From a virus: a stretch of 64,000 nt of DNA. The position numbers were made by a program, and so were the translations under genes. The stretch spans positions 1 to 64,000 of IMG/VR virus record IMGVR_UViG_3300034025_000120; one strand, written 5' to 3'. The notes under the pieces were generated by a model. That model was not told the origin of the DNA, ran no database searches, and saw only the letters and a program-made list of their open reading frames with translations. Numbering within the stretch: position 1 is the stretch's first letter; each line of letters starts with the position of its first letter. Below, in pieces: positions 2,235-38,489 of this stretch.

Positions 2235-2387
2235 ATGCATCCCGCACAATTTAAAGAAGGTCAAGAAGCTTATCTGGGTGGTCGCAAAAAAGAAGACAAC
2301 CCTTACCCATCTGGCACGTTGGCGTACGGCCAATGGAATACGGGCTGGGAGTTCCAAGCCAAGGCCGATCTCGGTGAACCAGAATAA
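2235..2387 (+). CDS. small RMF-like (ribosome modulation factor-like) protein, 50 aa
   Basis: AGAGG RBS then ATG. The translation contains GQEAYLGGRKKEDNPYPSGTLAYGQWNTGWEFQA, which fits the RMF pattern G.xA..GR.KE..PY...W..GW. It falls below the ORF-track length cutoff. Confidence 0.45.
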   Translation: MHPAQFKEGQEAYLGGRKKEDNPYPSGTLAYGQWNTGWEFQAKADLGEPE

Positions 2388-2411
2388 ACCAAAAAAGAAA
2401 GAGGGACTAAA

Positions 2412-3515
2412 ATGGCAACAAACGAAAACGAAGTACGAACCATTGTTCAAAATGTCGAGCGGATTCTCGAAGAAACCGGCCACAGTGCTATCCCACAAAT
2501 CTTGTCTGGCGTCACGATCATCCCTGAGGCCGAGCGAGTAGTCATCGAGAAAGCGATTGTCGACTGGGCGGTTCGCCTGATGCGCCAGCCCGGCATGTTC
2601 ATCAACTCCGACCGGGATTCTATTATCCTCAGCGAGAAGGGGTTGGAAATCGCGACAGCTTTTAAAGAGTATGTCGCTCTAGGCTTGCCTAACCCATGGG
2701 AAACTAATCTCAGTGAGCGGGCGATCGAGAATTTTCGCCACCTGTCGGCCCAAGGGAAACTGATTCAAATGAAATCGGAATTCGCCTTTCCTCCGCCACA
2801 CGTGATTCCATTGCCGAACAAAGAGATGTCGGTAAGCGACCATGAAGTTGGTACGAGGAACGGCATGCTGCGCGACCTCGATCCACCGCGTCTTTACAAC
2901 ATCCCGAAGGAGGGAAGCGAAGATCGCGTCGAGTATCACTTCGGTCCACGGGCATTTACGGTAAGCGATAGTCGTCGTCAAATGTTCGCCAGCCACCTGT
3001 CGGAAGCCCGCTGTGACGATCGGTACCTAGTTCTTAACGAGCACGGCAAGCTCGTTAAGAATGGCAAAGAGTGGCGTGATACCAGCAAGTATGCCAAGCG
3101 TCTGAACAACAAGCGCAAGGGGTCGCGCGTGAAGACGGTCTTCCCGCGCAGGAATCCCGTCCGGAAGTGGGGTGAAGTCGAATCCATCTACGCCAACCCG
3201 TACCGCTACACGAAACGCCGCTTCAGCGGCAAGGTCGTGATCGACGGTCAGACTGGTGGCTACGCTATCACGGAAAACCGGCTGATCCATCGCGTCACCT
3301 TTCAAGATCACTTGCAAGCACCGAGTGGTTCGATGCGCAAAAAAGCAAAATACCGCTCCCGCATCGTCAATACGTTCTGGACGCATAATCCGTACGCCCG
3401 TGTCGTCAAGGCGATTCTTGACCTCGAAGCCTCGCCGGGCTACACTGCTCGTCACGCCGAGATCGTCAAGCAGTTAGAGGCCGCCAAACCAACCCGCAGC
3501 AAAGAACCGAAGTAA
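2412..3515 (+). CDS. hypothetical protein with PSGSMRKKAK motif
   Basis: 367-aa ORF with AGAGGGA RBS. Confidence 0.65.
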   Translation: MATNENEVRTIVQNVERILEETGHSAIPQILSGVTIIPEAERVVIEKAIVDWAVRLMRQPGMFINSDRDSIILSEKGLEIATAFKEYVALGLPNPWETNLSERAIENFRHLSAQGKLIQMKSEFAFPPPHVIPLPNKEMSVSDHEVGTRNGMLRDLDPPRLYNIPKEGSEDRVEYHFGPRAFTVSDSRRQMFASHLSEARCDDRYLVLNEHGKLVKNGKEWRDTSKYAKRLNNKRKGSRVKTVFPRRNPVRKWGEVESIYANPYRYTKRRFSGKVVIDGQTGGYAITENRLIHRVTFQDHLQAPSGSMRKKAKYRSRIVNTFWTHNPYARVVKAILDLEASPGYTARHAEIVKQLEAAKPTRSKEPK

Positions 3516-3551
3516 TCCCAATCTATCAATCTAGCAAGAAGGAGCATTACC

Positions 3552-4373
3552 ATGAGCATCATCTTTACCGCCATCGCCGAAGACATGGAAGAACGCACTC
3601 GCCGCGAGCAAGCCGAACAAGAGCAGGCCCGTACCTCGATCCACAACATCGTCAGCCTCGATGACTTGTGGAAGTTCCGCACCGGACACGAGCAAGAAGT
3701 CCTGATGCGCGAAATTAAGACTAACGCGGGTGTCCGTCTGGCCTGGCGCATTGTCAACCGCATCGAACGCGCCGAACATCTGGTGCGCGCCTACGACCAC
3801 ATCATGACCACGATCATCGAACCGTCGACCGGCAAACCGATGTTCGAAGAATCGATCGACGTCGATGGCGGCGTATCAGCAATCCTGATCGAAGCGGCCA
3901 GGTTCGACTTCATGGACAACATGAACTTCGACAATGAATTCTCGCTGATGGAATTCGTGCTCACCCACGAAAATCCACTCTTCGTCTATGAGTTCATGGA
4001 CAACTTCATCCACAATGTCCTCGGCACCATCCTGGCGGGCGATACGGCCGCTGAGCGTCAAGCAGCTTTCCGCGAAACCATGGAACAGCCTGCGGCGGAA
4101 TTCATGCGCTTGGCCATCGATGCTTATCTCATTTACCTGAACGAGCAGAAACAACGTTTCAATAGCTCGCGTTACGGCAACGACGTCCTGCACACTGAAC
4201 CGCAGCAAGATTCACCGAATTCGCCGGATGCATCGACCGAGGCACCACCAGCACCGGCAGAACCCGGCCATACCGTCGCGACAGCCGAACCTTCGGTCAT
4301 CATTACCGATCCGAATGCTACGATCCATGTGAACGCGGCGCCGGTCGAAGCAGCGCAACATAAACCAGAGTAA
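3552..4373 (+). CDS. hypothetical acidic protein
   Basis: 273-aa ORF with AAGGAG RBS and GC3-rich codon use (casts an antisense shadow ORF). Confidence 0.7.
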   Translation: MSIIFTAIAEDMEERTRREQAEQEQARTSIHNIVSLDDLWKFRTGHEQEVLMREIKTNAGVRLAWRIVNRIERAEHLVRAYDHIMTTIIEPSTGKPMFEESIDVDGGVSAILIEAARFDFMDNMNFDNEFSLMEFVLTHENPLFVYEFMDNFIHNVLGTILAGDTAAERQAAFRETMEQPAAEFMRLAIDAYLIYLNEQKQRFNSSRYGNDVLHTEPQQDSPNSPDASTEAPPAPAEPGHTVATAEPSVIITDPNATIHVNAAPVEAAQHKPE

Positions 4374-20111: not shown

Positions 20112-21407
20112 TTGGGCGTTGGCGTTGAGCTTGAAGACTTCGATAACTTGTTTCGACTTCACAACCGCAGGACCAAGGTCATCTTGAATGATTTGCGGAA
20201 TGCAACCGAAGAAGACCGCAAGAATATCGAGAAGCTTTTGTGCACCCGGTACGACTCCACTGACTTTCTTTCTAATATTCCGTCGTGCGGCTGTGGTGAA
20301 ACCACGGGTGCATATGCGGAAGGGTTGGTGGGCTTCTTGTGCCCCAAGTGCGGGACACACGTAACAAACCAGTTGGAACAGGACTTGGAACCCTTGGTCT
20401 GGATGCGCGCACCAATGGGTGTCGTGGCCTTGCCGAATCCGAATTTCTGGAGCATGCTCTTGGAGCGCTTCAAGTTAAAAGGATTCTGCGTGATCCAGTA
20501 CCTGTGCGACCGGACCTACAAAGCATCGGTGAAGTTCCCACAAGAGCTGCCCCAGATCGATGCACTGGTGCGAACCATCATGAAAGAGCGCGGGTACAAC
20601 AACTTTGTCAATAATTTCGATGCGATGATGCGCGGAATGTTGGCATTGAAAGTGTTCCGTAAAGGCACCAAGAAGCGGGAAGAATTTGATGCATTCCCGA
20701 TCCTGATCCAAGAATCGCGCAAAGCATTGTTTGCGCAACATCTTCCAGTCCCGAACCGCGCCTTGTTTGTGCTTGAAAACACGAACCTCGGTGAGTACGG
20801 CGACATGACGATGAATGGACTCATCAATGCCGTGAACATGATGACCAACATCGATTCTGACTTGAGCGGTTTGAAACCGGCCAAGAAAGAAATCCTGACG
20901 GTCAAGATGCTCAACAGCCTGTGCACTTTCTATGACGATATCTACCGGGATCGGTTGTCGCCGAAGGAAGGTTGGTTCAGGAAGCACGTGTTTGGTAGTC
21001 GTTCGCACTTCAGTTTCCGTGGCGTGATTGCTTCGTTGACGGGTCGGCACGATTACGACGAGATTCATGTCTCGTGGGGGATTGGGGTATCGGTGCTGTC
21101 CTTGCACCTGACCAACAAACTCCTGAAGATGGGATGGAACAATTACGAGATCAACAATCTCTTGTACGAGTATGCCCAGAAATGGCATCCCGTGCTCGAC
21201 CAGTTGTTTAAGGAACTGATTGCAGAAAGCCCGTACAAGGGTATCCCTGTGATCTTCCAGCGTAATCCATCACTGGAACGTGGTTCGGCGCAAGCCATGT
21301 TCATTACGCAAGTGAAGGGGTCAGCAGTACGACCGCAAGATGCAGAAATCCCCACTGTGTCGATGTCGATCCTTAGCGTTACGGGTTTTAATGCCGATTT
21401 CGATGGT
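20112..21407 (+). CDS. multisubunit RNAP beta-prime N-terminal subunit, exon 1
   Basis: TTG start after AGGAG. Zn-ribbon CGCGETTG...CPKCGTH is present. The exon ends at the catalytic motif FNADFDG, after which the frame degenerates. Confidence 0.8.
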
Positions 21408-22807
21408 AAAGTAACAACATTGCCATCGCTAAACTTCTTTAACTGTCTGGAACACCCTGAGAGTCTTGTCAACCACAACGCGGTGCGAAAGCACGATCGT
21501 GACGGTTTGAAAATGACAAGGATTGGGAAACCAGCAGCCAAGCCTCTGTTAAATGAGGAAGGTTCAACGACTATCGAAACCACCCGCAAGGGACAAGGGA
21601 GTAGAGTAGGGTACCAAGCGGACCCGAAACGGGAAGCACTCTTAACAGAGTGAAGATATAGTCTCAACCGGTATGAGAGTATCGGAAGTCATTGTCTGGA
21701 CCACAATGACGGCTAGGGTAGCGCCTAGTAGCTTCTACTAACTTAAAGGAGAGTAATGAATAGAAAACACATTCCAGGAACCACTGGCTTTCAAGCCGAC
21801 AGAGATGGCAACATCTACGATGCATTTGGTAGGAAACGCAATACCTACTTAAATGGGGACGGATACGTTACTGCATCGGTTTATACTAACGACGGTCGTT
21901 GGGTAACTTTCGGTGTACATCGGCTGGTGGCATTAGCGTGGTTGGGCGATAAGCGCGGTCCTGGGTGTGATGAAGTCAATCACCGGGATGGTGATATCAA
22001 GAATAACCGAGTTGAGAATTTAGAATGGGTAACATCCAGTCAGAATAACATCCATTCCGAAATCATGAGACGCTGCAACATTTACCCCACGCTCATGGTG
22101 GAATCAAATGGTGTTGTTAGATTGGCCAACGATGCTTGGGAAGCGCAAAGTTTCACAGGTGTCAGTGCACTAGACATTTGGGACGCCATTAAGGATGGAA
22201 CGGTGGTGCAGGGATTTAAGTTCACGCATTTTCCATACCGGACGAATATCCCAGCGCAGTTACATAAGCCCAAATTAGGTCAGCGCGATGTAAATGGCAG
22301 AATGATCGAACGGGCTATCAAGACGTTGGATATTGATACCGGTGAGATCGAAGTGTTCACTTCGTTTGCTAAAGCGGCTGCTAGATACAATACCACTGCT
22401 AGTCAATTGCATCTTGCCATTCCGCGACGTGGCGAAGTGCGGGTGTTTAGAAAGAAATACCAAGTCGAGTACATGGATCAAGATTTTCCAGAGATGACTC
22501 TGGAAGAACTGGCTCGTGCAAAGAATCGCGGACCACGGTCTGTACTGGCGTATAACACCGTCACAAAGAAGTATTCGATTTACGAGAGCGCCAAAAGTTT
22601 CATTGCTGCAAATGAATTAAGTAAGAAAGCAGTAACCACCTCCCTTGTGAAAGGGAAGTTGCGGCAGGTCGGCGACTGGGTGGCCGTGTATGTAAATACA
22701 GAAAACACAGAAAAGCTCAAAGAGTATGTGAAAGGTCCAGCGGACACGCACTCTTCCTGACAACAGTAGAAGCGATAAAAGCACAGCAATGTGTACAATG
22801 AAATTTG
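21408..22807 (+). mobile_element. group I intron carrying an HNH homing endonuclease ORF
   Basis: The 5' exon ends in U. The exon end GAUGGU can pair with intron GCCAUC (21422-21427) to form P1 with a U.G wobble at the splice site. The conserved core element AAGATATAGTC is at 21653-21663. The last intron nucleotide is G (22807). Joining the exons restores NADFDG-D. Confidence 0.8.
21756..22760 (+). CDS. HNH homing endonuclease (NUMOD4-like N-terminus, HNH, C-terminal HTH repeats), intron-encoded
   Basis: Motifs are HIPGTTGFQADRDGNIY and HRLVALAW...VNHRDGDIKNNRVENLEWVTSSQNNIH. GGAGAG RBS. It is more AT-rich than the flanking DNA. Confidence 0.85.
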   Translation: MNRKHIPGTTGFQADRDGNIYDAFGRKRNTYLNGDGYVTASVYTNDGRWVTFGVHRLVALAWLGDKRGPGCDEVNHRDGDIKNNRVENLEWVTSSQNNIHSEIMRRCNIYPTLMVESNGVVRLANDAWEAQSFTGVSALDIWDAIKDGTVVQGFKFTHFPYRTNIPAQLHKPKLGQRDVNGRMIERAIKTLDIDTGEIEVFTSFAKAAARYNTTASQLHLAIPRRGEVRVFRKKYQVEYMDQDFPEMTLEELARAKNRGPRSVLAYNTVTKKYSIYESAKSFIAANELSKKAVTTSLVKGKLRQVGDWVAVYVNTENTEKLKEYVKGPADTHSS

Positions 22808-32789: not shown

Positions 32790-32867
32790 TAAGTGTAGTA
32801 GAACCACGAATTGGTATCATACAAAGAGTTTGTTGTTATAACACGAACGAAAAGGAAGACAACGAAA

Positions 32868-34091
32868 ATGCCATATGGACAAAATCCATCAGCACTGTAT
32901 CTAATCAAGCACGAACCCAACGAACTGCGGCGTGAGTTCTTGGGCGTATGCGCGCTTAATCCTTGGTTCGCCCACGATTCTTCGCCACGCCAGCAAATGT
33001 TTGCCAGCCACTTAGGGCAAGCACTGGTGTTCAAAGGAATCGGTCGCCGGTATTTCCAAACCGGCATGGAAAGGGAATACGGTAAATACACCTTCTCGGT
33101 CAAGATGCCCACCACAGGGGATGTCATCAAGATCGTTGAACGGTATCGTCGTGGCGTGAGTGCCAGTTCCATCAACCCACCCAAGTCACCCCAAACGATC
33201 CTCATCTACGAGGATTACCAAACCAAGGAAATCGGCTGCATCGATTTGCCGACGCATACTTCGAATCACCCGTATTTTGGTTTTGAATACCAAAGCACCG
33301 ACGCACTGCAAGACTTGATGTGCGGGAAGAAATCGTTTACCGAAGGCCAGATTTTCCTGGATTCTCCTGCAAAGGATAAGAATGGTAACTATGGCTTTGG
33401 CATGGAAACCCCGATCGCTTTCCTCTCGCTACCCGAAACATCGGAAGATAGCGTCTTGGTGTCTGAAGACCTGTTGCCGTTGCTGAAGTTCAAGGTCACC
33501 GAGCGGCGCACCGTGGAATGCGGCCGCGATGCGTTCCCGAAAGGGATGTTCAATTACATCGATGCCAGCGGCAAAGAAGTTTTCAAACCGTTTCCCGAAA
33601 TTGGCGAGTACATCCGCGAAGACGGGCTGGTCATGGCCACGACCCGGTACAACGAGAAGTCGGCGTTGTTTGAAATGGGGATCAACGATGTCAAGACCTT
33701 GAACATTCCGTTCGACCTGCCCTGCTACGCCACCGCGGGCAAAGGCAAGATCGTCGACATCAAAATCTGGCATGACCCGTACAACACGTCCGGGTTAATT
33801 CCTTTTGGCATGGAAGACATGTTCAAGAAGTACGATGGCGGCATGCGCGCCTTCTACTTGGAAATCTATCAGGAGTGGAAACGCTTGCACCGCCAACGCG
33901 GCGCAGCCTTGAAACTCAGCCCTGCCTTTAGTGCTTTGGTCGAAGAAGCCATCGCCATGGTGGGTGAGCACAAAGAACGGATTCACATGCATCGCCGGCG
34001 CAAACCGCTGGATGACTACACGATTGAATTTACGATCGAGTACGACGTGGTCCCGACCGAAGGCTTCAAGCTAACTGATTGCCATGGTGGT
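32868..34091 (+). CDS. multisubunit RNAP beta subunit C-terminal half, exon 1
   Basis: SSPRQQMFASHLGQA (compare bacterial NMQRQAVP). ETSEDSVLVSE (compare FEDSILVSE). The exon ends ...KLTDCHGG inside the HGxKG motif. The ATG at 32868 follows AAGGAAG. Confidence 0.8.
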
Positions 34092-35395
34092 CGACATTAA
34101 GTGAAGATTCATCCATCTCTTTGAAAGGAGGTGGACATGGTAGAAGAGGAATTTAGAGTTGTACCTGGTTATAAAGAATTCAGTGTAAGCAATGATGGAA
34201 TTGTTAAGTTATCGGAAGATAACTCGATAGTTACTTTGTACAGCACTGGAGGTTATTGGACATTTAGCTTACCCAGTAACTATTCAGGATCGACGTTGTC
34301 AGTGCATAGAGCTGTAGCATTGGCATGGGTAGCAAATCCTAATCCAAGTGAATTTAACATCGTCAATCATCTTGACGCTAACCCTGCCAATAATTGGTGG
34401 GGAAACTTGGAATGGACAACCTATTCAGGTAATAATTACCATGCTATAAACAATGGTTTAAGACCGGACAATATTCCCTGTAAAGTGCGAGACTTTATTA
34501 CAGGAGAAGTCTACGAATATAGTTCGATGGCACAAGCTGCCGAAGCCATGGGGTTGAGGAAAGATACATCCATTTATCAGTTATACCCGAAGATGTTTGG
34601 GAAACTGATCGTGAATCGTTATGAATTTAGATTTGCTAATGACTTCACGCCGTGGTTCTATGAAAGTAGAAAGTATCAGATTCGACCTGCACGCTATATG
34701 GTGATTGTTACCGATGTCGAAGAAAATACCAGGGAAATTTTCTCAAATGCGACATTGCTCAAGGAATATCAGCTGTACGATAGTCCAGGTAAGTCGATAC
34801 CAGCGTTAGCGGAACACGGGAACCAGATATATCCCCATTTGAAATTCAGTGTACGAGACAGTTATGCGGAGGAACGTTTCCGCGTGATGCGTCAAACGAA
34901 AGAAAGTCGATCAATGCCAATCAAAGCTAAAAGCGGAGAACGGACCATCGACTTTGGTTCACTGACTCAATGCGCTAACTACTTTAAAGTTGATCGATCC
35001 AGTATTACAAATCGTTTAAATAACGATAAGAATTTGGATGGATGGACCTTCACTCAGTCAGCCTCTTTAGCTAGTAATGGCTAAAGAAACTTCCTTTAAT
35101 TGACCGGAAATAACCTGAGAGCCTTGTACACCAAGCCAATACCAAAAGTATTGGTGGCCAGCGTAACGAACTGGGTATGGTAACAGAGACAAGGATTGGA
35201 GAACCGGCAGCGAAGCTCCCAACGGGAGAACGTTCAACGACTAAGACCTTACCAGTCTGTAGGATCAAGCGATCCGAAATGGGGAACACCCGAACCAGCG
35301 ATGGAGGGTGAAGACATAGTCTCGACATCCGGCTAACAGCCGGAGCTGCGCGTAATGGCGCGGGTTAGGTGTAGCGAACCTAGTTGAAGGTATCG
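34092..35395 (+). mobile_element. group I intron carrying an HNH homing endonuclease ORF (exact junctions inferred)
   Basis: The 3' part (35073-35395) shares blocks with the intron at 21408-22807: CCTGAGAG, GACAAGGATTGG, GTTCAACGACT and GTGAAGA(T/C)ATAGTCTC. The junction 34091(U)|35396, preceded by G at 35395, restores HGG-KGIICKI. I could not identify a P1 guide sequence. Confidence 0.7.
34137..35084 (+). CDS. HNH homing endonuclease, intron-encoded
   Basis: AGGAGG RBS. Motifs are FRVVPGYKEFSVSNDGIV (NUMOD4-like) and VHRAVALAW...VNHLDANPANNWWGNLEWTTYSGNNYHA. It is markedly AT-rich. Confidence 0.85.
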   Translation: MVEEEFRVVPGYKEFSVSNDGIVKLSEDNSIVTLYSTGGYWTFSLPSNYSGSTLSVHRAVALAWVANPNPSEFNIVNHLDANPANNWWGNLEWTTYSGNNYHAINNGLRPDNIPCKVRDFITGEVYEYSSMAQAAEAMGLRKDTSIYQLYPKMFGKLIVNRYEFRFANDFTPWFYESRKYQIRPARYMVIVTDVEENTREIFSNATLLKEYQLYDSPGKSIPALAEHGNQIYPHLKFSVRDSYAEERFRVMRQTKESRSMPIKAKSGERTIDFGSLTQCANYFKVDRSSITNRLNNDKNLDGWTFTQSASLASNG

Positions 35396-36331
35396 AAAGG
35401 CATTATCTGCAAGATCAGGCCAGCGCACGAAATGCCGGTGGACGAAGCAGGAAACCGGGCCATGATTGCGATGGACCCGAACTCGACTGTGTCGCGCATG
35501 AATATCGGACGGCTCTACGAGCAGTTCATGAATGCATCGCGCCGCGATACCCGCAAAGCACTGTCGGCCATGCTGGGCATCGAGCACCATGATCCAAAGG
35601 CGGTGGTCAAGGTCCATGAACTCCAGCAACGCGATCCTGCCACCTTTAACAAGGCGTGGGATTACCTGCTCGGGTTCTATAAGATCGTCTCGCCACAGCA
35701 GTACAACTGGCATGTCACCGGCGAATACCGCGATCCACCTGCGACCCATCTGGGCAAAGTGATTGCGGATGATCTGTTTGTGTTCTTGCCGACGGAGAAT
35801 GACCCAGAGTCGGAGCAAATCGTTCATGACCTGTGGAAGTATTATCCACCTACCTACGGCCCCGTGCAGTATGTGGGTAATTCCGGGAAGCTGCGTACTA
35901 CCCGCGAAAAGGTCATGATTGCTGAGATGTATGTCATGTTGCTGGAGAAGATCGGTGACGATTGGACGGCAGTGGCGTCTGGCAAGACCCAGCACTTTGC
36001 GGTGTTGTCGCAAATGACGAATGCGACCAAGTATTTGCAGCCGACACGCAATTCGCCGGTCCGGACTGACGGGGAAGCAGAGAAGCGCATCTTTGTCTCG
36101 TATTGCGGTTGGCAATTGGCATCGGAACGCCATGACCGGAATAACAACCCGGCCACGCACAAAGAAGTGACCTACTCGATTCTGACGGCCGATCGACCAA
36201 CAGACATCAAGTGCGCCGTGAACCGCAAGAAGAATCCGCTGGGCCAAGACCGTCCACTGGTCATGGTCAAGCACATGCTGCAAACCGGCGGTACCAAGGT
36301 CACCTATGAAGACGTGGGCTTTGTTCACTAA
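35396..36331 (+). CDS. RNAP beta subunit C-terminal half, exon 2
   Basis: KGIICKIRPAHEMPVDEAGNRAMIAMDPNSTVSRMNIGRLYEQ aligns by eye with bacterial KGVISKI..DMP.DE.G...DI.LNP.GVPSRMNIGQ. Confidence 0.8.
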   Translation, partial: KGIICKIRPAHEMPVDEAGNRAMIAMDPNSTVSRMNIGRLYEQFMNASRRDTRKALSAMLGIEHHDPKAVVKVHELQQRDPATFNKAWDYLLGFYKIVSPQQYNWHVTGEYRDPPATHLGKVIADDLFVFLPTENDPESEQIVHDLWKYYPPTYGPVQYVGNSGKLRTTREKVMIAEMYVMLLEKIGDDWTAVASGKTQHFAVLSQMTNATKYLQPTRNSPVRTDGEAEKRIFVSYCGWQLASERHDRNNNPATHKEVTYSILTADRPTDIKCAVNRKKNPLGQDRPLVMVKHMLQTGGTKVTYEDVGFVH

Positions 36332-36377: not shown

Positions 36378-38489
36378 ATGGCAGCATTAAAACGCATCAG
36401 TGCAAGGGCACTCTTAGATTTGTCGCAGGACTTCTTGAAAGAGAACCTGCATGGACCATTCAAACTGGTCTTCGACGACGGGCACGAAATTGTCACGAAT
36501 GCACGGGAAACGCTGTTGTCGGGCTATGGCTGGGAGTACCACCGGGAATACCGGGAAACACCCCTGCTGTACCGACACCACGTGCAGCATGTGTTAGCCG
36601 GCGGTATGTTGGACGCCGATACCCACTTAAAGCTCCTCAGTATCTGCATGTGGAGTGTGTATGACGAGTATGTCTTGCCGAATTACAAAGCACGCATGCT
36701 CGTCGCCAATACAGCAACCGAGCAGTTGGAAATGCAGGTGGTCGATGAAGTTGAGTTACGCGAACTGTTGTTTAAGCGCGCGTACGAGTTGACCAACCTC
36801 ATTTACAATGAGTTGAGTGAGCACTGCGAAGAGTATGTGGTGTCCTTGAACATCTTGGACTTCATGGAAGTCTTGGCGCACCCCAAAGTGCGCGAGATCA
36901 ACAATACCTTGCAGCCCAACCCAGCGTCAATCAACAACGCCTATAAGGTGGTGAAAGACACGCTCAGGAATGCCCCTGAACTGCAAAGAAATCCGCTGGC
37001 CAAGGCCGTGCATTCCCGTACGGTGAAAGAAGACCAGCTGATGCAGTGTCTGACAGCGCGCGGTACCTTGACGGACGTGGACTCGTATGTGTTCCGGCCA
37101 CCGGTCTTGCGTGGTTACGCCCGTGGCTTCCGAAAAGTGTATGAAGCCATGGTCGAATCGCGCTCGGCAGCAAAAAGCTTGGCGTCGTCGAAAGCGCAAT
37201 TGCAAGATGCTGAGTATTTCTCGCGGCGCTTGCAGTTGGTTGACCAAGTGGTGCAAAACCTCCACATGGCCGATTGCGGTACCACCGAGTACGCGGAGTG
37301 GTATGTCCGTGGGGAAGAAAAGGAAGCGGGCCGTACCAAGCGCAAGGCTGACCTGAAGAAGTTGGTGGGCTTGTACTACTTGACGGAGCAAGGTGAACTG
37401 CGTACGATCAAGGAAACCGATTCTCACTTGATTGGCAAGAAGATCAAGCTGCGGACGGTGCTCGGTTGTGCCCACCCTGATCCGTACGGTGTGTGCAGTA
37501 CGTGTTTCGGTGACCACTCCTTGTCGGTACCGCGTGGCTCGAACTTGGGCCACATGTGCTGTACCCACATGACGCAAAAGAGTAGTCAGTCCGTGCTGTC
37601 CTTGAAGCACTTGGACATGAGTTCGGATGTCGATGGCGTGATCATCGATTCCTTCATGCGCAAGTTTGTCCGCGCATCGGAAGACGAAAGCTCGTATGTA
37701 TTGGCCCCGGAGTTGAAACAAGCCGATGCTGTCAAGCTGATTGTGTCGCCGACCCAGGCCCGTAACTTGACGGATATCCGGAATGTGGACGAGGTCGAGA
37801 AGTTGGCCTTGACCCACGTCTCGGAGATGGAATCCATCACCATCGAGCTTACCACCCAAGGCGGTAAGCATGAAGAACCACATGTGGTCCCGGTTCGGAT
37901 GGCAAACCGCAATGCCAGCATGACCCATGAACTGCTCGACTACATCAAGATGTTCGGGTGGGCCACGGATACGGCCACGGGTAATTACGTGATCGACATG
38001 ACCAATTGGGACTGGTCATTCCCCTTCTTGACCTTGCCACCCAAGCACTTTAATATGAGCGACCATTCGGCCGCCATTGCGAAGATGCTGGAATCGACCG
38101 TGAAGGATGTCGATGAGCGGGATAGCCAAACCGATCCTGTGGAATTCTTGAAAGAGTTCCATGACCTCGTCAACGACAAGCTCGATGTGCCGTTGGCAGT
38201 GAACGCAGTGATTGTGCTCGGCGTGACAATTCGTTCGGCGAAAGACTTCGATTACCGGCTCCCCAAGCCGGGCACAGCAGTCGGCCTTGGTGTGCGGTCC
38301 AACATCATGGACTACCGCAGTGCGTCAGCAAAGTTTGCATTCCAAGGACACCGGGATTTCTTACGAAACCCCGCTATGTATTTGAAGGGTGTGAACAAGA
38401 ACCGTCCTAATCACCCGATGGACGGGGTCATTACTCCGCAAGAAGTATTGCAAGCGGAACGAAACCGGAAAGGTTGGGTCACCAACTAA
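36378..38489 (+). CDS. multisubunit RNAP beta-prime C-terminal subunit
   Basis: AGGAGGAAAG RBS. ADCGT (compare DDCGT). IKLRTVLGCAHPDPYGVCSTCFGD (compare VKVRSVVSC..FGVCAHCYGRD). Trigger-loop-like HMTQKSSQSVLSLKHLD. Confidence 0.75.
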   Translation: MAALKRISARALLDLSQDFLKENLHGPFKLVFDDGHEIVTNARETLLSGYGWEYHREYRETPLLYRHHVQHVLAGGMLDADTHLKLLSICMWSVYDEYVLPNYKARMLVANTATEQLEMQVVDEVELRELLFKRAYELTNLIYNELSEHCEEYVVSLNILDFMEVLAHPKVREINNTLQPNPASINNAYKVVKDTLRNAPELQRNPLAKAVHSRTVKEDQLMQCLTARGTLTDVDSYVFRPPVLRGYARGFRKVYEAMVESRSAAKSLASSKAQLQDAEYFSRRLQLVDQVVQNLHMADCGTTEYAEWYVRGEEKEAGRTKRKADLKKLVGLYYLTEQGELRTIKETDSHLIGKKIKLRTVLGCAHPDPYGVCSTCFGDHSLSVPRGSNLGHMCCTHMTQKSSQSVLSLKHLDMSSDVDGVIIDSFMRKFVRASEDESSYVLAPELKQADAVKLIVSPTQARNLTDIRNVDEVEKLALTHVSEMESITIELTTQGGKHEEPHVVPVRMANRNASMTHELLDYIKMFGWATDTATGNYVIDMTNWDWSFPFLTLPPKHFNMSDHSAAIAKMLESTVKDVDERDSQTDPVEFLKEFHDLVNDKLDVPLAVNAVIVLGVTIRSAKDFDYRLPKPGTAVGLGVRSNIMDYRSASAKFAFQGHRDFLRNPAMYLKGVNKNRPNHPMDGVITPQEVLQAERNRKGWVTN

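Follow-up and report, generated by a model that had tools for sequence, protein, structure and literature searches.

What separates the two parts of an RNA polymerase (RNAP) gene that breaks off in the middle of a catalytic motif, and could the parts still yield a single protein? The question is raised by positions 34092–35395 of a 64,000-nucleotide (nt) stretch of viral DNA, positions 1 to 64,000 of the IMG/VR record IMGVR_UViG_3300034025_000120 (hereafter "the window"; all features described are on its plus strand). A first-pass annotation had read this segment as a group I intron with an HNH endonuclease that splits an RNAP beta subunit inside its HGxKG motif. We reach the same view: with a probability of roughly 0.92, the compared sequences identify 34092–35395 as a 1.3-kb mobile group I intron in the HGG-KG active-site motif of the beta-C gene of a jumbo-phage non-virion RNA polymerase (nvRNAP), the counterpart of the intron that separates gp71, gp72 and gp73 of phage phiKZ. 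Since the same phiKZ intron was already known at this codon, the element is a further member of a known intron family.

The interruption is flanked by two open reading frames (ORFs), as the first-pass annotation had reported. ORF 32811–34100 ends in ...FKLTDCHGGRH*, ORF 35384–36331 begins with MKVSKGIICKIRPAHEMPVDEAGN and continues to ...SRMNIG, and a third, ORF 34131–35084, lies between them. Against phrog_3295, the PHROG profile for RNAP beta, the upstream ORF matches positions 4–403 (E = 1e-103) and the downstream ORF positions 403–692 (E = 6e-86). Because the two ORFs adjoin at one profile position, they represent two halves of a single gene. The second half also matches the Pfam family RNA_pol_Rpb2_6. 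When 32811–34091 is joined to 35396–36331 and the product is queried from ATG 32868 (719 amino acids, aa), it matches PDB 7OGP chain C over its full length (E = 3e-119), the chain named "PHIKZ071" in the phiKZ nvRNAP structure, and it also matches bacterial beta subunits near E. coli residues 1063–1136. These two matches together identify the host gene as a jumbo-phage nvRNAP beta-C gene, homologous to phiKZ gp71-73. No match was found by megablast between this region and GenBank phages, and the genome is therefore one without a close cultured relative.

Exon 1 (32868–34091) ends in ...FKLTDCHGG; its ORF opens at TTG 32811, and ATG 32868 is the probable start. Its tblastn matches lie in Burkholderia phage FLC9 and others. 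Exon 2 (35396–36331) opens with the Lys codon AAA and reads KGIICKIRPAHEMPVDE...SRMNIG.... The intron is placed between the codon for Gly427 and this Lys codon. By alignment to 7OGP chain C, the lysine corresponds to K394 of phiKZ gp71-73, the Lys of HGG-K-G and the first exon 2 codon in both phiKZ and the window. It is thus a conserved lysine of the double-psi beta-barrel (DPBB); the structure papers name K386 and K394 of phiKZ gp71-73 as the two conserved DPBB lysines (PMC8287921). Ribosomes translating exon 1 would meet an in-frame UAA stop at 34098–34100, 7 nt into the intron.

Joining 34091 to 35396 gives the nucleotides ...CATGGTGGT|AAAGGCATT... and the reading TDCHGGKGIICKIRPAHEMPVDE, which agrees residue for residue with uninterrupted relatives; the translation across the junction, TDCHGGKGIICKIRPAHEMPVDEAGNRA, has no insertion or deletion relative to the homologues. 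Intronless homologues read TDCHGGKG[IV]ICKI across the site, likewise without an indel. They include Burkholderia phage FLC9 gp370 (46% aa identity, FKLTDCFGGKGVICKI) and the IMG/VR contig L005 (86% aa identity, TDCHGGKGIICKIRPAHEMPVDENGNRA; nucleotides ...TGCCATGGCGGCAAAGGCATCATCTGTAAG...; L numbers designate the sequences compared), and the same uninterrupted reading as in L005 is found in L004 and L006 (each 75% aa identity) and in L007, L008 and L009. These continuous homologues fix the junction at 34091|35396. Enumeration of every junction near the site that is in frame, free of stops and has a U at the end of exon 1 and a G at the end of the intron gave 43 candidates. The first-pass annotation had singled out 34091|35396, and it alone (1 of 43) gives TDCHGGKGIICK, the indel-free sequence of the intronless homologues.

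Ribozyme core, guide sequence and splice sites

A covariance-model scan, which the first-pass annotation had proposed as a check, places the Rfam group I intron model RF00028 at 35024–35343 under permissive settings, with 45.6 bits and E-values of 5.5e-10 locally and 2.1e-8 over the whole window; at such values the intron core is not a chance match. In this alignment the model placed its P1 and P2 on ORF sequence. Ten further introns occupy the same site (in phiKZ, PA7, PhiPA3, L010–L013, L137/L138, L139 and L140), from at least seven other phage lineages, and the same-site relatives score 69–84 bits. Eight related phage introns share 54–67% identity with the window ribozyme and all exceed the Rfam threshold (59–84 bits). 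In a BLASTN search with the core, introns of PhiPA3 and Pseudomonas phage HPP-Temi were similar over its full length, and many other phage introns over part of it.

The structure derived for the window comprises P2, P3, P4 with a bulged A, P5 with a P5abc-like extension, P6, P7, P7.1, P7.2, P8, P9, P9.1 and P9.2, and all of its pairs are canonical. It includes the conserved P3–P8 core, with the P3/P7 pseudoknot and the P4–P6 domain. P2 (35064–35071 with 35080–35087; hairpin 35064–35087) has 8/8 canonical pairs, five of the eight compensatory among relatives, and encloses the stop codon of the endonuclease ORF (35082–35084). The RF00028 alignment places in 35091–35233 the 5′ strand of P3 (35091–35096), P4 (35101–35107 with 35204–35209, A35103 bulged), P5 with its extension, and P6 (35210–35233). 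The catalytic core (35239–35321) continues with P7 (35239–35243 with 35317–35321), P7.1 (35244–35258), P7.2 (35262–35275), the 3′ strand of P3 (35281–35286), P8 (35287–35310) and J8/7 (35311–35316, AAGACA). The peripheral hairpins P9 (35329–35343), P9.1 (35349–35362) and P9.2 (35363–35380) are canonically paired. The core-like string GTGAAGACATAGTCTC noted in the first-pass annotation lies at 35307–35322, and the segment 35073–35395 that it had delimited does hold the core; but 35073 is not where the ribozyme begins, since the 3′ strand of P1 and the internal guide sequence (IGS) lie at 35036–35063.

Support for this structure among relatives was counted in a plain, unrefined MAFFT alignment of nine related introns, in which P3/P7 was treated as a pseudoknot. 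In the window structure 76% of cells are paired and 31 pairs have changed on both sides, compared with 35–45% and 5–13 when the 3′ partners are slid, and none of 500 shuffles matches the observed score; as the structure came from the window sequence itself, these controls are indicative and are not probabilities. The P4–P6 helices are 76–100% paired, with compensatory changes, and P7 is 100% paired and identical in 9/9 aligned introns. RNAalifold independently retrieves P4–P7 and P9.2, the latter with compensatory changes. The architecture appears IA2-like: P7.1 and P7.2, known from IA2 phage introns, are accompanied by a P5abc-like extension; the label follows the Michel–Westhof classes and is a likeness, not the outcome of a formal test.

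The first-pass annotation had found no convincing P1 guide for this junction. A guide is present, G35061-C35062-C35063, directly 5′ of P2; it had been missed because it lies ~970 nt downstream of the 5′ splice site, within the final stretch of the endonuclease ORF, among its last codons. None of the other guide candidates examined matches G-Y-Y-R-Y-Y, and the guide was therefore sought 3′ of the ORF. The 5′ strand of P1 (34089–34095) consists of exon GGU (34089–34091) and intron CGAC (34092–34095), with the 5′ splice site after U34091. G34089 pairs with C35063, G34090 with C35062, and U34091 forms a wobble with G35061 at the splice site; after a C34092×A35060 mismatch, GAC 34093–34095 pairs with GUC 35057–35059. 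The P1 extension, with 5′ strands in 34100–34118, then pairs AGUGAAG (34100–34106) with CUUCACU (35048–35054) and UUCAUCCAUCU (34108–34118) with GGAUGGAUGGA (35036–35046). The whole duplex has 24 base pairs (bp) and -33.3 kcal/mol. Its partner strand gives the best duplex for the 5′ segment on either strand of the window, the segment's own reverse complement aside (background -15.9 +/- 3.8 kcal/mol). Because the two strands of P1 flank the endonuclease gene, the gene lies in the loop of an extended P1.

This helix recurs across the family. The pairing of exon GGU with IGS GCC, including the U·G wobble, is invariant in 11/11 same-site introns. An equivalent helix of 24–29 bp (-28 to -38 kcal/mol) is found in five ORF-bearing lineages (the window, phiKZ, L137, L139 and L140), always with the GGU/GCC start and with differing internal sequences: the segment that reads AGUGAAG/CUUCACU in the window is AGUAAAAGU/ACUUUUACU in L139 and AAUAUCC/GGAUAUU in phiKZ. 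The first intron bases, too, covary with those just 5′ of the IGS (AAUU/AAUU in phiKZ and PA7, UC/GA in PhiPA3, AGUUUU/AAAAUU in L011). Exon 1 ends in GGU in every intron-bearing allele, mostly as GGU GGU (34086–34091 in the window), and the nearest intronless alleles (L004–L008, at ~4150–4230) have GGC GGC for the same two glycines. Alleles with GGC GGC would lack the U at the splice site and would lose the P1 pairing; recognition by the endonuclease may be affected as well.

At the 3′ end, G35324 and A35325 (P9.0 5′ strand, 35324–35325) pair with U35393 and C35394, which directly precede G35395 (P9.0 3′ strand and terminal G, 35393–35395). The pairing recurs in every lineage, always between the second and third bases past the 3′ strand of P7 and the two that directly precede the terminal G. 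Four combinations covary across seven of the eleven same-site introns; the pairs read GA/UC in the window, GU/AC in phiKZ, PA7 and L137, UU/AA in PhiPA3, and CU/AG in L010–L013, L139 and L140. The P9.0 pairing therefore places the terminal G at 35395, with the 3′ splice site after it; all same-site relatives also end in G. The boundaries 34092–35395, which the first-pass annotation had held with reservations, thus rest on the intronless homologues, on the U34091·G35061 wobble and on the position of P9.0 beside G35395.

In this fold, as shown by structure and comparison, the last three bases of exon 1, GGU, are paired with the guide GCC at 35061–35063, the 24-bp long-range helix closes the ~0.95-kb loop carrying the endonuclease gene and so draws the 5′ splice site to the core, and P3–P9 supply the usual catalytic elements. 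For the splicing pathway we hypothesize conventional group I chemistry: an external guanosine would attack after U34091, G35395, set by the 2-bp P9.0, would then fill the G-site in P7, and exon ligation would restore ...TDCHGG-KGIICK.... The I-HmuI-like HNH enzyme would presumably nick intronless alleles near the site, and repair would copy the intron in (homing).

The endonuclease and introns at the same site

The endonuclease gene in the P1 loop (34137–35084) encodes 315 aa; its start is most likely ATG 34137, 6 nt past AGGAGG, rather than GTG 34131. Its last 16 codons and stop overlap the 3′ strand of P1, the IGS and P2. The HNH assignment of the first-pass annotation is borne out by a match to PHROG 59, "HNH endonuclease" (E = 3e-33), by a C-terminal NUMOD1 module (Pfam, 26.5 bits; cut-off 22.8), and by an N-terminal nuclease domain that aligns to residues 2–104 of I-HmuI (PDB 1U3E, E = 9e-5). 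The I-HmuI NUMOD-like domain (25.2 bits; cut-off 27) and Pfam HNH_3 (18.6 bits; cut-off 24.8) fall below their cut-offs. The residues VNH78..NN..NLEW..N..H102, as expected of an HNH beta-beta-alpha-metal motif with its catalytic His and Asn, are invariant across five aligned ORFs. By analogy with I-HmuI and PhiPA3 gp210, we infer a nicking homing enzyme, for which L005 and L006, with their uninterrupted sites, would be candidate substrates. With a GC content of 41%, compared with 51–55% in the exons, the ORF is of foreign composition.

The best GenBank phage match of the endonuclease is PHIKZ072 (gp72), with 49% identity over 97% of its length (E = 2e-94), and the closest IMG/VR enzymes (55–57%) come from four jumbo-size contigs, L137–L140, all at [HA]GG|KG of the same gene; L010 and L011 carry 34%-identical enzymes at NGG|KG. 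The window element thus shares with the phiKZ gp72 type both the insertion codon and an orthologous endonuclease; the same-site ORFs of L137–L140, L010 and L011 are likewise orthologues of the enzyme. We also observed that the endonuclease (34137–35084) is closest to the same-site enzymes, and that the ribozyme (35052–35395) most resembles introns in the DNA-polymerase genes of PhiPA3 and HPP-Temi (66–67%, versus 53–61% for same-site introns). By these comparisons, endonuclease and ribozyme seem to have separate histories. The PhiPA3 and HPP-Temi similarity extends over ~330 nt and includes the P5 extension. Those introns differ in host gene and exon context, and the PhiPA3 copy is ORF-less whereas that of Temi carries a longer HNH ORF.

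The phiKZ intron has the identical insertion point, HGG|KG, just before the K394 codon. Its sequence reads CATGGTGGT|AATTAA...(gp72)...AACATAACG|AAGGGC, with the same codon position as in the window. It also shares the exon 1 GGU, the IGS GCC, an HNH ORF in a P1 loop closed by a long P1 extension, and the overlap of the ORF 3′ end with the IGS and P2. The two are distant, with host genes ~33% and ribozymes ~57% identical, and the phiKZ and PA7 ribozymes do not have the ~80-nt P5 extension found in the window. The phiKZ intron was predicted in 2002, the fused gp71-73 protein was shown in 2015, and structures are available (7OGP, 7OGR). According to a later study that cites the original genome paper, the latter had predicted the endonuclease genes gp56, gp72 and gp179 to be intron-borne (PMC10914365). 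In polymerase purified from infected cells, phiKZ gp71-73 is a single 74-kDa polypeptide (PMC4666361), and 7OGP chain C reads FHGGKGVICK.

The other same-site introns (L137/L138, L139, L140, L010–L013 and PhiPA3) share with the window intron the codon, the GGU/GCC P1 and the P9.0 positions. Unlike the window intron, those of PhiPA3, PA7, L012 and L013 have lost the ORF, PhiPA3 thus carrying an ORF-less intron at this site, and L010 and L011 have a local hairpin in place of the long-range P1 extension. The PA7 intron (L002, 3159–3465) corresponds to that of phiKZ (L016, 1769–2986) with the gp72 ORF precisely deleted; a short hairpin, AUAUCCAU...AUGGAUAU, remains from the two former P1-extension strands.

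Introns at other sites offer further parallels. Like the window element, the PhiPA3 gp210 intron combines a group I ribozyme with an I-HmuI-like HNH enzyme in a conserved catalytic motif of an RNAP of a nucleus-forming jumbo phage. It differs in residing in the virion rather than the non-virion RNAP and in a different motif. Its enzyme has been shown to nick the allele that lacks the intron and to put a co-infecting phage at a disadvantage (Birkholz et al. 2024, PMC11620839). The intron of the SPO1 DNA-polymerase gene, with I-HmuI, resembles the window element in its enzyme, whose HNH N-terminal domain aligns, the window enzyme carrying a NUMOD1 module; the T4 td-type IA2 introns resemble it in a core with P7.1 and P7.2. 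Both the SPO1 and T4 introns lie in other host genes and differ in ORF location. In the T4 introns, GIY-YIG or other enzymes are encoded in the P6 or P9 loops.

Alternatives to a spliced intron

Several observations weigh against a functional intron. A default Rfam scan of the window returned only the first intron (21377–21685, 82.7 bits) and missed that at 34092–35395, whose 45.6 bits fall 4.4 short of the 50-bit gathering threshold of RF00028. Same-site relatives that also bear an ORF reach 72–77 bits, so that the ORF and the interrupted P1 are not the whole cause of the low score. J8/7 has C35315 where all eight aligned relatives and the Rfam consensus have U, and the exon contributes just 3 bp to P1. 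No conserved P10 pairing adjoining the IGS was found when 35036–35060 was inspected against AAAGGC. P10 is not essential in many phage introns. Finally, a long-read transcriptome study of phiKZ reported that, in its conditions, the gp72 intron yielded no spliced reads (PMC10914365), a result that conflicts with the phiKZ protein evidence.

The alternative that best survives is a decayed, non-splicing intron, with beta-C made as two polypeptides, an extra split in the already split jumbo-phage RNAP. Besides the sub-threshold Rfam score, the U-to-C change in J8/7 and the one transcriptome study without spliced reads for the phiKZ counterpart, it can draw on an in-frame TTG at 35384, four codons ahead of the Lys codon, and on the natural splits of jumbo-phage beta and beta′ elsewhere (PMC7598289). 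The TTG, however, has no preceding Shine–Dalgarno (SD) sequence, and the break would sit inside a DPBB strand, between two catalytic lysines. All core helices are intact, with zero non-canonical pairs in P2–P9.2, while P1, P9.0 and the core covary, and the phiKZ orthologue yields a fused protein. As to J8/7, two IMG/VR introns with scores of 86 and 91 bits contain the same 14-mer with the C variant; the 14-mer scan gave mostly chance matches, and the 2 of 17 checked loci that lie in introns set a precedent, not a frequency. Judging from these two introns, the C variant is tolerated in nature. Taken together, we consider decay quite improbable.

An intron with other boundaries, such as 34088|35393 (HG-SKG) or 34091|35390 (HGG-VSKG), has in its favor that U34088 is also a U and that G35389 and G35390 are also Gs. 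The former intron, however, would terminate in A, all such options gain or lose residues relative to every homologue, and in all lineages the base equivalent to G35061 faces that of U34091 and P9.0 adjoins that of G35395; we give these boundaries hardly any credence. Equally little speaks for a free-standing HNH gene between the gene halves beside a structured RNA unrelated to splicing, or for an intein or translational bypass: such HNH genes are common in phages, with hundreds of relatives in the match list, but this ORF is enclosed by both P1 strands and overlaps the IGS and P2, and where the ORF is missing at this codon (PA7, PhiPA3, L012, L013) the ribozyme is retained. The absence of intein motifs and the stops in frame with the exons exclude an intein.

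Shine–Dalgarno hairpin, other introns and annotation

The SD sequence of the endonuclease, AGGAGG (34125–34130), lies in the 3′ arm of a local hairpin at 34112–34135 (-12.6 kcal/mol; z = -1.2, which alone is not significant). Comparable SD hairpins are present in phiKZ (z = -2.0), which has the same arrangement of hairpin and P1 extension as the window, and in L010 (z = -5.4) and L011 (z = -4.0), where the hairpin is different and much stronger. In the window its 5′ arm uses bases 34112–34118, which also belong to the P1 extension, so that hairpin and extension are mutually exclusive; endonuclease synthesis and splicing would accordingly be alternatives for each transcript. A regulatory role of the hairpin is something we only infer from this model, in which an RNA switch may gate endonuclease translation. 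The enzyme may also act as a weapon between phages, by analogy with PhiPA3 gp210. A broader reading would join these ideas to a mobile intron and endonuclease family that spreads among very distant nucleus-forming jumbo phages, always into HGG|KG of the nvRNAP. We regard this combined reading as speculative and rather unlikely.

Among phages of this group the element is an ordinary one. With it, one more lineage joins the set, of at least eight, that carries an insertion at this active-site codon pair. Viewed along with the first intron of the window, in the NADFDGD motif of a beta′-like gene, it shows catalytic motifs of the polymerase to be recurrent homing sites, in keeping with recent evidence that competition between co-infecting jumbo phages can be decided by such endonucleases. 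The P1 solution, in which the guide is part of an ORF and ~970 nt away from the splice site, applies to the phiKZ intron too. Gene callers break this essential polymerase subunit into two "genes" and an endonuclease, as do public records of phiKZ relatives, in which gp73 starts from an internal ATG. Knowing the exact junction allows the 719–739 aa subunit to be annotated and modeled correctly in metagenomic jumbo phages.

In the records of PA7 (L002, 3487–4389) and phiKZ (L016, 3023–3910), exon 2 is called from an internal ATG (MEDEDMPI...), with loss of KGVICKV, and the phiKZ record annotates a small ORF, PHIKZ072.1 (L016, 2779–2889), within the ribozyme; both are probably annotation artefacts. 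In the window, the gene next to exon 2 (36378–38489) encodes the beta′-like partner (phrog_3015). The first intron interrupts a beta′-like gene directly after ...FNADFDG, inside the NADFDGD motif (region 20112–22760), and has an HNH ORF of its own (21756–22760) downstream of the core, which shares only 23% identity with the second intron's endonuclease. Elsewhere in IMG/VR, the 7-kb viral contig L026 (IMGVR_UViG_3300031689_000283) carries four RF00028 matches of 83–91 bits on one strand within 1.8 kb (2318–4084), and L027 has two.

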